From positions 146,881-210,880 of the forward strand of contig NZ_JBDFQT010000004.1 of the NCBI RefSeq assembly GCF_039675725.1: 64,000 nucleotides of DNA, in the 5' to 3' direction. Position numbers and translations under genes: made by a program. Source of the DNA: Erwinia sp. Eh17-17. GTDB taxonomy: Bacteria; Pseudomonadota; Gammaproteobacteria; Enterobacterales; Enterobacteriaceae. Below the pieces are notes generated by a model. That model had not been told where the DNA came from, did no database searches, and saw only the letters and a list, made by a program, of their open reading frames with translations. Shown here piece by piece: positions 28,419 to 34,591 of this stretch (position 1 is the first letter of the stretch; each line of letters begins with the position of its first letter).

Positions 28419-29333
28419 TCAGAGCGGAAACACCGCGAAATCATGCGCCATCTCGGTGTGTTCAAACACCGCCCGGCACTCCGCCAGCAGCCGTTCACTA
28501 TCACCCCGCAGGTAACGCGTGCTGAGATGCGTAACAATCAGCCGTTTTGCGCCGCTTTCCAGCGCCACTTTTGCCGCCTGCGCCGTGGTGGAATGCCCGC
28601 GGCTGTTGGCCTTCTCTTCCATCGCCACTTCCAGCGTGGCCTCATGCACCATCAGGTCTACCCCCGCTGCCATTTCGTTCGCCGCCGCCGTCGGTGCGGT
28701 ATCGCCAAAAATCGCCAGGCTGCGCCCTTTGATTTTATCGCCCACGTAATCCCAGCCGTTAAGGGTCCGGCCATCCGGCAGCGTCACGCGCTTACCGTGC
28801 TTCAGGTCATAGAAGTAAGGCCCGGCAGGAATGCCGTCGGCGGCCAGCTTCGTCGCATCCAGCGCGCCCGGCTTATCATGCTCATCAATGCGGTAGCCGT
28901 AACACTCCACCGGATGGGTCATCGGGTACGCCGTTACGCGGAAATGCTCATCGTTGCACACCTCACCCGCGCTAATTTCGATAATCTCCAGCGGGAAGGT
29001 CAGCCACGAGCCGCTCAGGCTGAGGGTGGTTTCGACAAAGGTTTTCAGCCCCGCAGGGCCGTATATCGTCATGGGGTCGGTAGAGCCGTTCATCGACCGG
29101 CTGGTGAGCAGACCCGGCAGGCCAAAAATATGATCGCCGTGCAGATGGGTAATAAAGATCTTCTCGATCTTCCCCGGCTTGATCGGGGTGCGCAGGATCT
29201 GGTGCTGCGTGGCCTCCCCGCAGTCAAACAGCCAGGTGGCATTGCGCACCCCCTGCAAATCCAGCGCTATGCTGGTGACGTTGCGCTCGCGACCGGGCGT
29301 TCCGGCACCGGTACCTAAAAACTGCAATTGCAT
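28419..29333 (-). CDS. rbn: Ribonuclease BN / RNase Z (tRNA 3'-end processing metallo-beta-lactamase)
   Basis: [26 protein letters not shown]...[17 protein letters not shown]... aligns along its length with E. coli RNase BN (ElaC) and has the HxHxDH motif. The longer track ORF from 29372 overlaps rtcR. Confidence 0.85.
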
Positions 29334-29352
29334 AATTGACGGACTCCCTGAG

Positions 29353-30936
29353 CTATTGTTGCGGTAATTCACCCGACTTCACGCTGTCCCAGTCTAACGC
29401 AAAACGGGCCAGATACTTGCGCAGCCGGTCGGCGTCATTCGGCTGTTTCTTCTGCTGGCGTGAAACGGCAAACAGCGTGCGGCCGGCCTCCGACAGCGAT
29501 GCGGATTCGCGACACACCTTCAGCACCGTCTCCAGCTGGCTGTGGTCAAACAGATCCAGCGTCTCCGGTAACACCAGCGTGGGTTCAAGCTGCCAGCTGG
29601 CGCGCAGGCGGGCGATCTCTTCTTCCACCTGCGCCAGTTCGATACGGCCGTTATCCGCCAGCGTGGCCATGCGGGTGACGGAGGCGCTCAGCTCGCGAAA
29701 GTTACCGCGCCACAGGGCAGCAGGCGCGCAGGCAAATTGCAGGTAACGCTGACGCGCCTGCGGCTCAAAACGCACCTGCGACTGGGCATCGCTGGCAAAG
29801 CGCAGCAGTTCAAACTCCAGATTAGGTTCAATATCTTCACGCCGTTCCGCCAGCCCCGGCAGCGTAAAGCTCCACATATTAATACGCGCATAGAGATCCT
29901 CACGGAAGCGCCCTTCCGCCACCCACTGGCGCATATCGCGATGGGTCCCGGCGATCAGCTGAAAATCACTGCTGACCTCTTTATCCGCGCCGAACGGCAG
30001 GAAGCGCTTCTCTTCTATCGCTTTCAGCAGCATCGCCTGTTCATCCAGCCCCAGCTCGGCAATCTCATCAAGAAATAACATGCCGCCGTCGGCCTCACGC
30101 AGCAGCCCGTTGCGCGGCTGCAACGCGCCGGTGAAGGCCCCTTTCACATGGCCAAACAGCGTGGACATGGCATTATCACCGCGCAGCGTGGCGCAGTTGA
30201 CCGCCACCAGCCTGCCGCTGACCCGATGACGTGACTGGCGCAGCTGATAAATTCGCTCGGCCAGAAACGATTTGCCCGCCCCGGTCGGGCCGCTCAGCAG
30301 CAGTGGCGCGTCCGAGCGCAGCGCCACCCGTTCAATCTGATCGATCAGGTTATTAAAGGTGGCGTTACGCGTGGAAATACCGCCCTTCAGCAGCGATACC
30401 GACTCCTGACGTTCGCGCATAAAGCGGCTGGTCAATGTGGCATAACGGCTCAGGTCGAGGTCAATCAGCGTACAGACGCCCTCGGTTTTGGCACTCTCCT
30501 GTTCACGCGGGGCGGGGGCCGTTTGCAGCAGTCTGGCGGGCAGATAGCGTGCCTCGGTCAGCAGGAACCAGCAGATCTGCACCACATGCGTTCCGGTGGT
30601 GATATGCACCAGATACTCTTCATTCTCGGTATCAAAAGGATAGTGGCGGGCAAAATCGAGCAGGACGGTGTACACCTCCTCAAAATCCCACGGGTCATTC
30701 AGCGTAATCGGGTTCAGCCGCACCTCGGTTTCCGGCGAGACCAGCGCGATATCCTCCGACATTTGCTGTGCCATGGTCTGACGGTCGGGCTGATGCAGCA
30801 GGTCCAGGCGGTCAACCGGCAGATCCGGCTGCATGCACAGCCCCAGCGTCGGTCGCCATTTGTTCCAGCGGTTTTCACGCTTGCCCCGCTTATCCAGCGT
30901 GGTTCCCAGCATGCCTATCACCACTCTGCGCTTCAT
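29353..30936 (-). CDS. rtcR: Sigma-54-dependent transcriptional activator RtcR (N-terminal CARF domain, AAA+ and HTH)
   Basis: 527 aa with full-length similarity to E. coli RtcR (...[13 protein letters not shown]...[28 protein letters not shown]...[17 protein letters not shown]...GAFTGA...). Walker A and the GAFTGA sigma-54 contact motif are present. Confidence 0.9.
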
Positions 30937-30957
30937 GCCTTATCCTTTTATCGCAAT

Positions 30958-30977
30958 ATTTATCCCACAGGATAAAT
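30958..30977. promoter_or_regulatory. Perfect 8-bp inverted repeat ATTTATCC-caca-GGATAAAT in the rtcR upstream region
   Basis: It lies about 20 bp upstream of the rtcR start. A candidate operator. Confidence 0.35.
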
Positions 30978-32567: not shown

Positions 32568-32569
32568 CA

Positions 32570-33787
32570 ATGAGTCTGCAACAGCTGACCGCGCCGGGCG
32601 CGGCAATGATAAAAATGTGGACCGAGGGCGTACCGGTCGATGCCAAAGCACAGCAACAGCTGCTGAACACGGCAAGGATGCCGTTTATCTATAAACATCT
32701 GGCGGTGATGCCCGATGTACACGTCGGCAAAGGCTCGACCATCGGCAGCGTGATCCCGACCCTGGGCGCGATTATCCCGGCGGCGGTCGGCGTGGATATC
32801 GGCTGCGGCATGATGGCGGTGCGCACCTCGCTGACGGCCAGCGACCTGCCGGATAATCTGCTGGGCATCCGCAGCGCGATGGAGCGCGCGGTGCCGCACG
32901 GCCGCAGCAGCGGACGCTCGCGCAACGATCGGGGAGCATGGCAGACACCGCCACCCACGGTAGACCGCCACTGGCAGGTACTGGACGCAGGGTTTAAACG
33001 CCTCACTGACCGCTACCCGGCGCTGCTGAAAACTAACCACTATCATCACCTCGGCACGCTGGGCACCGGCAACCACTTTATTGAGCTGTGCCTGGACGAA
33101 GCGCAGCGGGTGTGGGTGATGCTGCACAGCGGTTCGCGCGGGGTGGGCAATGCGATTGGTAACCTGTTTATCACCCTCGCCCGCGAGGATATGCGCCAGC
33201 ACATCGCCGACCTGCCGGATCGCGATCTGGCCTATTTCAGCGAAGGCAGCCAGCACTTTGCCGACTACCTCGAAGCGGTAGCGTGGGCGCAGGAGTTTGC
33301 CCGCCACAACCGCCAGGTGATGATGCAGCAGACGCTGAGCGCGCTGGCTCAGGTGCTGCCGAAGGCGTTTATCGCCGAAGAGCAGGCGGTCAACTGCCAC
33401 CACAACTACGTGCAGCGCGAAGCGCACTTTGGGCAAGAGGTGCTGATCACCCGTAAAGGCGCGGTGTCAGCGCGCAAAGGTGAGATGGGCATTATTCCCG
33501 GCTCGATGGGGGCAAAAAGCTTTATCGTACGCGGGCTGGGCAATGAAGAGAGTTTCTGCTCGTGCAGCCACGGTGCCGGACGGGTGATGAGCCGCACGGA
33601 AGCCAAAAACCGCTTCACGGTGGCCGACCAGCAGCGCGCCACGGCCCACGTTGAGTGCCGCAAAGACAGCCACGTGATTGATGAGATCCCGATGGCCTAT
33701 AAAGATATTGATGCCGTCATGGCGGCCCAGTCATCGCTGGTAGAGATTGTGCATACGCTGCGTCAGGTCGTGTGTGTTAAAGGATAA
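32570..33787 (+). CDS. rtcB: RNA-splicing ligase RtcB (3'-phosphate/2',3'-cyclic phosphate to 5'-OH RNA ligase)
   Basis: Highly similar to E. coli RtcB along its full length (...KMWTEGVPVDAKAQQQLLNTARMPFIYKHLAVMPDVHVGKGSTIGSVIPT...CHHNYV...SFCSCSHGAGRVMSRTEAK...). Confidence 0.95.
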   Translation: MSLQQLTAPGAAMIKMWTEGVPVDAKAQQQLLNTARMPFIYKHLAVMPDVHVGKGSTIGSVIPTLGAIIPAAVGVDIGCGMMAVRTSLTASDLPDNLLGIRSAMERAVPHGRSSGRSRNDRGAWQTPPPTVDRHWQVLDAGFKRLTDRYPALLKTNHYHHLGTLGTGNHFIELCLDEAQRVWVMLHSGSRGVGNAIGNLFITLAREDMRQHIADLPDRDLAYFSEGSQHFADYLEAVAWAQEFARHNRQVMMQQTLSALAQVLPKAFIAEEQAVNCHHNYVQREAHFGQEVLITRKGAVSARKGEMGIIPGSMGAKSFIVRGLGNEESFCSCSHGAGRVMSRTEAKNRFTVADQQRATAHVECRKDSHVIDEIPMAYKDIDAVMAAQSSLVEIVHTLRQVVCVKG

Positions 33788-33799
33788 GGAGCAAACCTG

Positions 33800-34591
33800 A
33801 TGAATACAGAAGAAGCCGTCAGCCCGGCGATGCGCGAGCGGGTGCTGGCAGCATTAAAGGCGATTGAAGTCCGCGAAAACGTGCGCGTGCTGTACGCCTG
33901 CGAGTCCGGCAGCCGGGGCTGGGGATTCGCTTCACCCGACAGCGACTACGATGTGCGCTTTATCTACGTGCATCAGCCTGAGTGGTATCTGCGCGTGGAG
34001 CCGCCGCGTGATGTAATCGAACGGCCGATCGACAGCGAGCTGGACGTCTGCGGCTGGGAGCTGCGCAAAACGCTGGGGCTGCTGAAGGCCGCCAACCCGA
34101 CGCTGATGGAGTGGCTGGACTCGCCGGTGGTTTATCGCCAGCACCCGGACGCGGTGCAGGCTTTACGCGGGCTGGTGCCGGATTTCTTCAGCGATCTGCG
34201 GGCGCGCTACCACTATCTGTCGATGGCGAAGAAGAACTTTCGCGGCTATTTACAGGGCGAGTCGGTGCGGCTGAAAAAGTACTTCTACGTGCTGCGCCCG
34301 CTGCTGGCCGTGCAGTGGATCGAAGCCGGGAAAGGCATACCGCCAATGCGTTTTGACCGGCTAATGGCGGGAACGGTAAGCGACCCGCTGCTGCGGGCAG
34401 AGATCGACGCCCTGCTGGAAAATAAACGCCAGGCGGGTGAAGCGGAGTACGGCCCGCGCCGTGAGCGGATCCATGCCTTCATTGGGCAGCAGCTGGCACG
34501 GCAGGAGCGTCCGCCGCTGGATGACACACCGCGCCGCGATGCCAACGCCCTGAACCAGCTGCTGATGCAGACGGTACTTTCCCCGGTATAA
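33800..34591 (+). CDS. Pol-beta-superfamily nucleotidyltransferase of the RtcB-associated (RlaP-like) type
   Basis: The minimal nucleotidyltransferase motif GSRGWGFASPDSDYDV (GS...DxD) near the N-terminus. It is the third gene of the operon. The family assignment is from memory of RtcB-linked nucleotidyltransferases. Confidence 0.65.
   Translation: MNTEEAVSPAMRERVLAALKAIEVRENVRVLYACESGSRGWGFASPDSDYDVRFIYVHQPEWYLRVEPPRDVIERPIDSELDVCGWELRKTLGLLKAANPTLMEWLDSPVVYRQHPDAVQALRGLVPDFFSDLRARYHYLSMAKKNFRGYLQGESVRLKKYFYVLRPLLAVQWIEAGKGIPPMRFDRLMAGTVSDPLLRAEIDALLENKRQAGEAEYGPRRERIHAFIGQQLARQERPPLDDTPRRDANALNQLLMQTVLSPV

Follow-up and report, generated by a model that had tools for sequence, protein, structure and literature searches.

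A predicted RtcR-controlled SPFH-RtcB-RlaP operon and its tRNA-like leader RNA in Erwinia sp. Eh17-17

Genes of the locus

RtcB systems are widespread, yet what they act on naturally in bacteria, and with the help of which factors, is still poorly understood. Here we analyse an rtc locus of Erwinia sp. Eh17-17 that encodes the RNA ligase RtcB together with the regulator RtcR, a protein of the SPFH (Band-7) family and the nucleotidyltransferase RlaP. The locus lies in a stretch of 64,000 nucleotides (contig NZ_JBDFQT010000004.1, positions 146,881 to 210,880 of the forward strand), referred to as the window, and all coordinates are positions within it. From left to right, the order is a gene for a CPBP-family protease, rlmJ, tandem repeats, rbn, rtcR, a 497-bp spacer, the SPFH gene, rtcB, rlaP and gor. 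The features between rbn and gor are as follows.

29353..30936, minus strand: rtcR, activator with CARF, sigma-54 AAA+ and helix-turn-helix parts (NF038308, PF06956, PF00158)
30960..30975, no strand assigned: candidate upstream activating sequence for RtcR, palindrome TTATCC-CACA-GGATAA, read from the sequence
31073..31088, plus strand: predicted sigma-54 promoter TGGCACGCTTCTGGCA, with -24 GG and -12 GC, one mismatch to the consensus
31107..31186, plus strand: 5' domain of the leader RNA (RNAalifold on 17 and on 43 leaders)
31197..31245, plus strand: compact tRNA-like element (fixed-geometry pairing and T-loop motif)
31301..31403, plus strand: 3' domain of the leader RNA, a long interrupted helix (RNAalifold, 17 leaders)
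31434..32567, plus strand: SPFH / stomatin-like protein, 377 residues, predicted soluble (PF01145)
32570..33787, plus strand: rtcB, 3'-phosphate / 5'-OH RNA ligase (PF01139)
33800..34591, plus strand: rlaP, Pol-beta nucleotidyltransferase, 263 residues (PF10127)
34596..34619, no strand assigned: GC-rich hairpin immediately behind rlaP, at the module's right-hand edge, with a T-run on the minus strand only

Profile searches support each named gene of the locus at its coordinates. A preliminary description, made from the sequence alone, had named rbn, rtcR, an SPFH gene, rtcB and a nucleotidyltransferase gene, and all five identities hold with strong profile matches. Exact protein matches from Erwinia sp. 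Eh17-17 carry consecutive accessions and are named ribonuclease Z, RtcR, RtcB family and nucleotidyltransferase domain-containing protein. The SPFH gene and rtcB are separated by 2 bp, and rtcB and rlaP by 12 bp.

RtcR scores 823 bits against NF038308 (cutoff 650), matches PF06956 at residues 2-186 as well as PF00158, and contains the GAFTGA motif. Over its full length, 63% of its residues are identical to the E. coli protein. Its earlier description as a CARF-bearing sigma-54 activator is borne out by these profiles. RtcB matches PF01139 (expectation value, E, 3e-130) and is 68% identical to the E. coli ligase, with the SHGAGR motif aligned. RlaP covers PF10127 completely (E 5e-98, positions 1-249 of 249), which confirms that the 263-residue protein is an RlaP-type Pol-beta nucleotidyltransferase. 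Its translation shows the motifs GSRGWG and DSDYD (GS...DxD), and it is 59-63% identical to the RlaPs of Pseudomonas rtc operons. The P. fluorescens and P. aeruginosa enzymes add one or two nucleoside monophosphates to RNA 3'-OH ends (PMC12776372, a 2025 preprint). The same preprint predicts that RlaP is needed only against nucleases by which nucleotides are removed.

The cyclase RtcA, by contrast, was correctly reported as absent. A tblastn search of the 64-kb window with a Pseudomonas RtcA, itself verified against Pfam (PF01137, E 2.8e-76), gave a best E of 0.73, and the same query found no RtcA in 16 enterobacterial loci.

The SPFH protein matches PF01145 (Band_7, E 6e-27). It has no hydrophobic segment, with a maximal 19-residue Kyte-Doolittle score of 1.31, and is therefore predicted to be soluble, as had been proposed. 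Three N-terminal five-stranded beta modules (residues 1-187) are followed by the SPFH domain and a long C-terminal helix. The modules come from a separate model of residues 1-187 (predicted local distance difference test score 88), in which helices lie between them, and a sequence resemblance links modules two and three (31% identity, E 0.012). An additional copy is present in some homologues from Xenorhabdus, Providencia and Burkholderia. In homologues of 510-535 residues (for example in loci L028, L060, L064, L073 and L080 of the comparison described below), the N-terminal beta-module region is duplicated. Pseudomonas and betaproteobacterial homologues are 54-61% identical to the Erwinia protein. 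A resemblance to the major vault protein was considered and goes no further than the common SPFH fold.

Promoter and leader RNA

The spacer between rtcR and the SPFH gene holds a predicted promoter and a structured leader with a tRNA-like element, both of which the preliminary description overlooked. To compare this region, relatives of the SPFH protein were searched for, which yielded at least 576 species genomes, and 80 loci were fetched. TGGCACGCTTCTGGCA is the sole sigma-54 match with one mismatch in the Erwinia spacer. An identical or near-identical element is found 309-603 nt ahead of the SPFH gene in 61/80 loci, and it is missing from the 16 loci without a divergent rtcR. We conclude from this conservation that TGGCACGCTTCTGGCA is the predicted sigma-54 promoter of the repair operon, from which transcription would start near 31098. 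RtcR may bind the TTATCC-N4-GGATAA palindrome near 30960. A half-site, TTATCC, is found at 30940-30945, and TTATC(C)-N-GATAA motifs sit at the same position by the rtcR start in enterobacterial intergenic regions.

A transcript from this promoter is predicted to carry a structured leader of ~335 nt before the SPFH gene. Its 5' domain comprises a closing helix (31107-12/31181-86, paired by eye), a hairpin P1 (31118-31137) and a helix P2 (31138-43/31173-80) that encloses the hairpin P3 (31147-31168). In RNAalifold, P1 and P2 covary over 43 gamma- and betaproteobacterial leaders; one P2 pair, for instance, is UA in 30 leaders and CG in 13. The long helix of the 3' domain shows compensatory changes in most pairs among 17 enterobacterial leaders, also by RNAalifold, and ends ~30 nt before the SPFH start codon.

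Between the two domains lies the compact tRNA-like element. It consists of a 7-bp acceptor stem and a T arm and has neither a D arm nor an anticodon arm. The acceptor 5' strand (TGCGAAG, 31197-31203) is joined by a 14-nt connector (31204-31217) to the T stem-loop (31218-31234, ACGGG-TTCGACT-CCCGG, with the T loop TTCGACT). The acceptor 3' strand (CTTCGCA, 31235-31241) begins right after the T stem, which is the spacing of a tRNA, and a CCTC tail follows.

Several comparisons support this element. In 79/80 loci the T-loop motif GGTTCGANNCC is found on the strand of the SPFH gene and no more than 520 nt ahead of it, where 0.01 would be expected per 520 nt, and it is invariant in 17/17 aligned enterobacterial leaders. 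The acceptor strands of the window element pair at 7/7 positions, which 55 of 20000 shuffles of the upstream 40 nt equal within eight allowed offsets. Over 23 loci the best acceptor pairing averages 6.0/7, compared with a shuffled null of 4.44 (standard deviation 0.17, maximum 5.04). The combined acceptor-plus-T helix of 12 pairs was evaluated in a fixed-geometry alignment of 20 distinct sequences with its own shuffle control. In the chosen register it is 88.8% paired as opposed to 67.3% in column shuffles, 0/500 of which reach 88.8%. The covariation score is 0.602 versus 0.188, and slid controls give 34-54%. MAFFT and RNAalifold, applied to the tRNA-like element alone, yielded the T stem and nothing more, as the acceptor 5' strand varies too much to be aligned.

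Fuller versions of the RNA are present elsewhere. ARAGORN predicts one or two tRNA-like genes in the Pseudomonas and betaproteobacterial loci, on the strand of the SPFH gene and 250-430 nt ahead of it, and many of these full-length versions have irregular, variable anticodon loops. Rfam at gathering thresholds returned only tRNA matches, in Pseudomonas and Accumulibacter leaders. ARAGORN made no tRNA call in the enterobacterial loci, the window included. Many betaproteobacterial leaders have two elements in a row: first one of the compact architecture, in which the connector measures 11-16 nt, and then a complete cloverleaf. An nhmmer profile of the enterobacterial leaders aligns to betaproteobacterial leaders over the 5' domain and the compact element, and the two groups are therefore treated as homologous. 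In Enterobacterales, the full cloverleaf appears to have been lost and the compact element retained. Some loci, such as those sampled from Klebsiella, Citrobacter and Phytobacter, keep the T hairpin only. After the stem, many betaproteobacterial copies encode NCCA; the window reads A-CC-U, or C-CUC in the 7-bp register.

Other contents of the spacer were considered and rejected. A search of 26000-37000 against Rfam at E <= 1 gave nothing relevant to a Y RNA or another known family, and ARAGORN found no true tRNA gene in 27000-35000. An open reading frame (ORF) of 195 residues (30833-31420) is an implausible protein-coding leader, as conservation tracks the base-paired helices and the ORF crosses the promoter. 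No intrinsic terminator or attenuator was found between the leader RNA and the SPFH gene.

The position of the element raises the question whether it regulates the operon rather than partnering the SPFH protein. It sits in the 5' untranslated region directly behind the RtcR-dependent promoter, where it could act as a nuclease decoy or competitor, as a feed-forward source of RtcR ligand, or as an RNase P/Z site that sets mRNA stability. The known ligand of the RtcR CARF domain is a tRNA fragment, one ending in a 2',3'-cyclic phosphate, as shown for Salmonella RtcR only, and a decoy role has been raised for the tRNA-like domain of the Salmonella Y RNA YrlA (both PMC7790460). However, six loci without rtcR and without a sigma-54 promoter (L026, L033, L042, L047, L048 and L056) retain the tRNA-like element directly upstream of the SPFH gene. 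The RNA thus goes with the SPFH gene and not with RtcR control, and a partnership of SPFH protein and RNA is favoured over regulation alone. Moreover, the window element would be no substrate for an anticodon nuclease because it has no anticodon arm, and the irregular, variable anticodon loops of the full-length versions likewise speak against this reading. We therefore consider a regulatory leader unlikely.

Five of these loci, all from Burkholderiales (L026, L033, L042, L047 and L048), also carry 5-10 ordinary tRNA genes on the same strand, ~1-2 kb upstream of the SPFH gene and directly before the tRNA-like element.

Gene linkage and the history of the site

Gene linkage was counted in the 58 loci with full flanks, 12 of which are enterobacterial.

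Divergent rtcR: 49/58 loci; 12/12 enterobacterial
rtcB: 44/58 loci; 6/12 enterobacterial
rlaP: 33/58 loci; 10/12 enterobacterial
rtcA: 25/58 loci; 0/12 enterobacterial
rbn-like gene: 4/58 loci; 3/12 enterobacterial

The operon has no rtcB in Brenneria, Lonsdalea, Klebsiella oxytoca, Klebsiella sp., Citrobacter sp., Superficieibacter and Mangrovibacter. These rtcB-less loci (L001, L008, L009, L012, L014, L016 and, with a shorter flank, L002) keep rtcR, the leader, the SPFH gene and rlaP. What stays constant among the loci is the pair of SPFH gene and tRNA-like RNA. In Pseudomonas, the operon order is SPFH, a treble-clef zinc-finger protein, RtcB, a 192-residue protein, RlaP and RtcA. The zinc-finger gene (132 residues, PF13451; L040 8169-8567) occurs in 18/80 loci and stands between the SPFH gene and rtcB in Pseudomonas. 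The gene for the 192-residue protein (no Pfam match; L040 9794-10372) stands between rtcB and rlaP and occurs in 4 loci.

These counts bear on the possibility that the SPFH protein has no part in RNA repair and is simply a membrane-microdomain scaffold of the ordinary kind, encoded beside the rtc genes. Most characterised SPFH proteins are such scaffolds, and the best structural matches of the Erwinia protein, namely HflK/C, stomatin, flotillin and QmcA, are among them. NCBI names the family "slipin family protein", and deletion of PaFlo8, the P. aeruginosa homologue inside the rtc locus, had no phenotype (PMC13086221, a 2026 survey of P. aeruginosa). However, the Erwinia protein has no transmembrane or strongly hydrophobic segment. 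Across two proteobacterial classes its gene is linked to rtcR and rtcB at the frequencies given above, and it is linked to the tRNA-like RNA in 79/80 loci. In the window its stop codon lies 2 bp from the rtcB start, within the same predicted sigma-54 transcript. A mere neighbour is therefore, in our view, very improbable.

The flanks of the module are formed by three genes.

26711..27553, plus strand: rlmJ, 23S rRNA m6A2030 methyltransferase (PF04378, E 1e-116); left flank, outside the module
28419..29333, minus strand: rbn, RNase Z/BN, 304 residues (NF000800); outside the insertion/deletion
34771..36123, plus strand: gor, glutathione reductase (NF004776, 788 bits); right flank, outside the module

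The listed rlmJ ORF starts at 26669, and the E. coli-like N-terminus MLSYRHSF, read from the translation, starts at 26711. As stated in the preliminary description, rlmJ and gor are neighbours in E. coli (71 bp apart in K-12). Their distance in the window, given there as ~6 kb, measures 7.2 kb and includes ~0.8 kb of tandem repeats.

The rbn product matches NF000800 (ribonuclease Z) with 533 bits (cutoff 398) and aligns with E. coli RNase Z (2CBN) over residues 1-302 (E 1.7e-124). Against TIGR02649, "true RNase BN", it scores 444 bits, under the cutoff of 564. The longest ORF (GTG 29372) overlaps rtcR, and the profile match begins at Met14. The corresponding ATG at 29333 is preceded by GGGAG, lies 19 nt past the rtcR stop and yields the 304-residue protein of the public records, which upholds the start just beyond rtcR that had been called for rbn. 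It is probably co-transcribed with rtcR.

The preliminary description also placed rbn inside an inserted RNA-repair module, and neither part of this survives comparison. The order gor-rbn-rlmJ is found at the same site without rtc genes in E. amylovora, Pantoea stewartii (where the site also carries a CPBP gene) and Nissabacter. The closest relatives of Rbn track taxonomy, with 79-92% identity in Erwinia and 65-75% in Pantoea. Gene order and relatedness thus mark rbn as a resident housekeeping gene rather than inserted DNA, probably the housekeeping copy of an E. coli-type RNase Z, of which one copy is seen at the locus.

As for the module, homology with module-free genomes restarts at 34623, which gives it a length of ~5.3 kb (about 29337 to 34622). 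The gor-rbn spacer of E. amylovora (546 bp; L086 6455-7000) is collinear with the window and includes degraded remnants of rlaP. Its order is the gor upstream region, the rlaP C-terminal end, the rlaP N-terminal end and the rbn start. It matches the window at 72% of nucleotides over 85 nt (E 4e-7), and its translation shows VRVLYAC(K/E)SG. The module was thus located between these two genes in an ancestral Erwinia, and E. amylovora has since lost it by deletion. In Brenneria and Lonsdalea the module occupies the same site, there without rtcB. Together, the remnants and the occupied site point to an old residence followed by loss, and not to a recent insertion.

The GC content is 0.54-0.64 across the locus, similar to the flanks, and neither an integrase (in the ORF list) nor a tRNA gene (by ARAGORN) marks the locus as a genomic island. 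A plasmid-borne or mobile module was considered as well; the sole matches in the plasmid collection are non-mobilizable replicons of 0.33-4.8 Mb.

A resident rbn could still have become a working part of the module. It might act on damaged tRNAs by trimming their 3' ends, mature the tRNA-like leader, or generate or degrade the ligand of RtcR, which would give a five-gene functional island. The two genes lie on the same strand, 19 nt apart, and rbn has its own ribosome-binding site. The same-strand rtcR-rbn pair recurs with gaps of 9-46 bp in three enterobacterial families: in Brenneria and Lonsdalea with the same flanks, and in Proteus, Providencia and Xenorhabdus with different outer flanks. 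The five-gene order of Providencia heimbachae (L013) is identical to that of the window. Acceptor/T-arm minihelices are known substrates of RNase Z, and the window element ends in CCU, not in the protective CCA. In Variovorax gossypii (L068 ~11200-12120), a gene whose product is 33% identical to Rbn stands between rtcB and rlaP on the operon strand; no other locus from outside the enterobacteria has an RNase Z-like gene in the module.

Against such a role stand the module-free gor-rbn-rlmJ sites, the taxonomic distribution of the Rbn relatives, the resemblance to an E. coli-type housekeeping enzyme and the scarcity of rbn-like genes, which are near only 4/58 full-flank loci. Furthermore, rbn follows rtcR and is not downstream of the sigma-54 promoter, so one would not expect it to be induced together with the operon. 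In Xenorhabdus the pair stands with a plain rtcB and no SPFH gene, and any link of rbn would thus be to rtcR, not to the SPFH module. On balance we doubt that rbn works in the module, a role that we would call unlikely.

Two further observations concern the surroundings. The rlmJ-rbn gap (27552-28366) consists of two tandem-repeat arrays, one with a 52-bp unit (x3.7, 97% matches) and one with ~30 copies of the 20-bp unit CCCCATCCGACCGCGTAATC (83% matches); the gap is only 83 bp in E. amylovora and 10 bp in Nissabacter. Directly downstream of gor, on the minus strand, lies a chaperone-usher fimbrial cluster (36182-40193) with a MrkD-like tip adhesin of 406 residues (PF00419, PF22003) and a 954-residue ORF that, by the look of its translation alone, is a putative outer-membrane usher.

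Known relatives and a proposed scheme

The system is of a known, computationally predicted kind, and its novelty was overstated in the preliminary description. A 2018 preprint (10.1101/312249) credits Burroughs and Aravind 2016 with the prediction of an RtcB encoded beside a Band-7 protein and a tRNA-like RNA (b7a-tRNA). The arrangement is common, with relatives of the SPFH gene in at least 576 species genomes, and it has been described; functionally characterised it is not. The same applies to the SPFH partner, rightly called uncharacterised: the PaFlo8 deletion gave no phenotype in the assays that were run.

The Erwinia locus shares with these Band-7/b7a-tRNA/RtcB systems, for example the P. 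aeruginosa rtc locus with PaFlo8, the SPFH gene directly upstream of rtcB, RlaP in the operon, a divergent RtcR, and, shortly before the SPFH gene, a tRNA-like RNA whose T loop is canonical. It differs in four respects. RtcA, which is present in 25/46 non-enterobacterial full-flank loci, is missing; the treble-clef and 192-residue genes of the Pseudomonas operon are missing too; the RNA is an acceptor/T-arm minihelix instead of one or two complete cloverleaves; and rbn stands behind rtcR. The window is thus an ordinary chromosomal member of an enterobacterial variant characterised by the absence of RtcA, a reduced tRNA mimic and rtcR-rbn linkage.

The E. coli rtcR/rtcBA locus has the same divergent layout and sigma-54-dependent control, in addition to the similar RtcR and RtcB proteins. 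In contrast to the window, it includes rtcA, has neither an SPFH gene nor rlaP, has an rtcR-rtcB spacer of 188 bp as against 497 bp between rtcR and the SPFH gene, and occupies a different chromosomal site.

A further relative is the Salmonella rsr-yrlBA-rtcBA operon, which encodes the Ro60 orthologue Rsr and Y RNAs. According to PMC7790460, this operon is also RtcR-controlled, and a candidate scaffold and a noncoding RNA with a tRNA-like domain also precede rtcB. There, however, the scaffold is a TROVE/Ro ring and not an SPFH protein, and the RNA lies downstream of the scaffold gene and not in a leader upstream of it. The Erwinia leader has no Rfam match, Y RNA models included, at the threshold used above, and RtcA is again missing from the window. 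Ring- or cage-forming SPFH proteins (stomatin, HflK/C, prohibitin, flotillin, QmcA) differ from the Erwinia protein, which has no membrane anchor and no NfeD partner gene.

Taken together, we propose, as a reading that we consider somewhat more likely than not, that the locus is the enterobacterial version of an RtcR-controlled Band-7/tRNA-like RNA/RtcB repair system that works as follows. RtcR would be made constitutively, probably on one transcript with rbn, and by analogy with Salmonella its CARF domain would bind tRNA fragments that end in a 2',3'-cyclic phosphate. Active RtcR would then bind the palindrome near 30960 and open the sigma-54 promoter at 31073-31088. This would give one transcript with the ~335-nt structured leader, followed by SPFH, rtcB and rlaP. 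The tRNA mimic of the leader, or a processed piece of it, may bind the soluble SPFH protein, which probably forms a large ring or cage as other SPFH proteins do. The resulting RNA-protein particle could gather broken tRNAs or rRNA, or present them to the enzymes. In a tentative order of steps, RlaP would add one or two nucleotides to trimmed 3'-OH ends, and RtcB would seal 3'-phosphate or 2',3'-cyclic-phosphate ends to 5'-OH ends. RtcA would be dispensable because RtcB accepts both kinds of 3' end.

This proposal retains the core of the coherent RNA end-healing and sealing island first described, namely an SPFH-RtcB-RlaP operon under predicted RtcR/sigma-54 control and without RtcA; rbn is no longer counted as a member.

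A number of points weigh against the proposed scheme. At the level of the RNA, the window element is not a full tRNA and is called neither by ARAGORN (27000-35000) nor by Rfam, and its T stem contains an A-G mismatch. The register of its acceptor 5' strand was taken as the best of 8 offsets, a choice for which the pairing shuffles correct and which favours the helix tally of 88.8%. A single-sequence fold of the whole window leader barely beats shuffles (z = -1.7), and the case for the leader RNA is thus a comparative one. The 2018 preprint itself calls the b7a-tRNA not validated. At the level of the proteins, the absence of a phenotype in the PaFlo8 mutant is unfavourable, although the assays covered growth, virulence factors, motility, biofilm and oxidative stress, and none involved RNA damage (PMC13086221). 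Six of the 12 full-flank enterobacterial loci combine SPFH with RlaP and have no RtcB in the operon, so that ligation is not an obligatory part of the module. Finally, the 3'-OH end that RlaP produces is not directly ligatable by RtcB, as the RlaP authors point out (PMC12776372). This chemical gap between RlaP product and RtcB requirement has no answer in this locus.

A bolder version of the proposal would make the leader an undescribed composite RNA, absent from Rfam and built of a covarying three-way 5' domain, the acceptor/T-arm mimic and a long 3' helix, that assembles with a soluble SPFH ring or cage into a Ro-Y-like tRNA-repair particle. Here, the co-transcribed RNase BN/Z would process the mimic or tune the RtcR ligand in several enterobacterial families, and Enterobacterales would have kept the minimal mimic only, without the full cloverleaf by which the system is usually defined. 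We put this forward tentatively and regard it as doubtful in its entirety.

For annotation, two lessons follow from the locus. By the comparative evidence above, what is annotated as 335 nt of "intergenic" sequence before these "slipin" genes is a conserved RNA, and rbn is not to be read as cargo of the module. Specialists in RNA repair will not find the locus surprising. Its minimal RNA, its soluble SPFH protein and the pairing of rtcR with rbn nevertheless make a long-standing prediction directly testable, and the culturable Erwinia host offers a convenient test bed. Among the loci compared, the Erwinia version is the simplest form, with one minimal tRNA mimic, three genes and no RtcA. It exemplifies an SPFH protein that has no membrane anchor and is tied to a tRNA-like RNA in nearly every locus. 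If an SPFH-RNA particle does form, it would define a new, RNA-centred role for SPFH proteins and would provide a second, independent example of the RNA-guided repair scaffold first conceived for Ro and Y RNAs.

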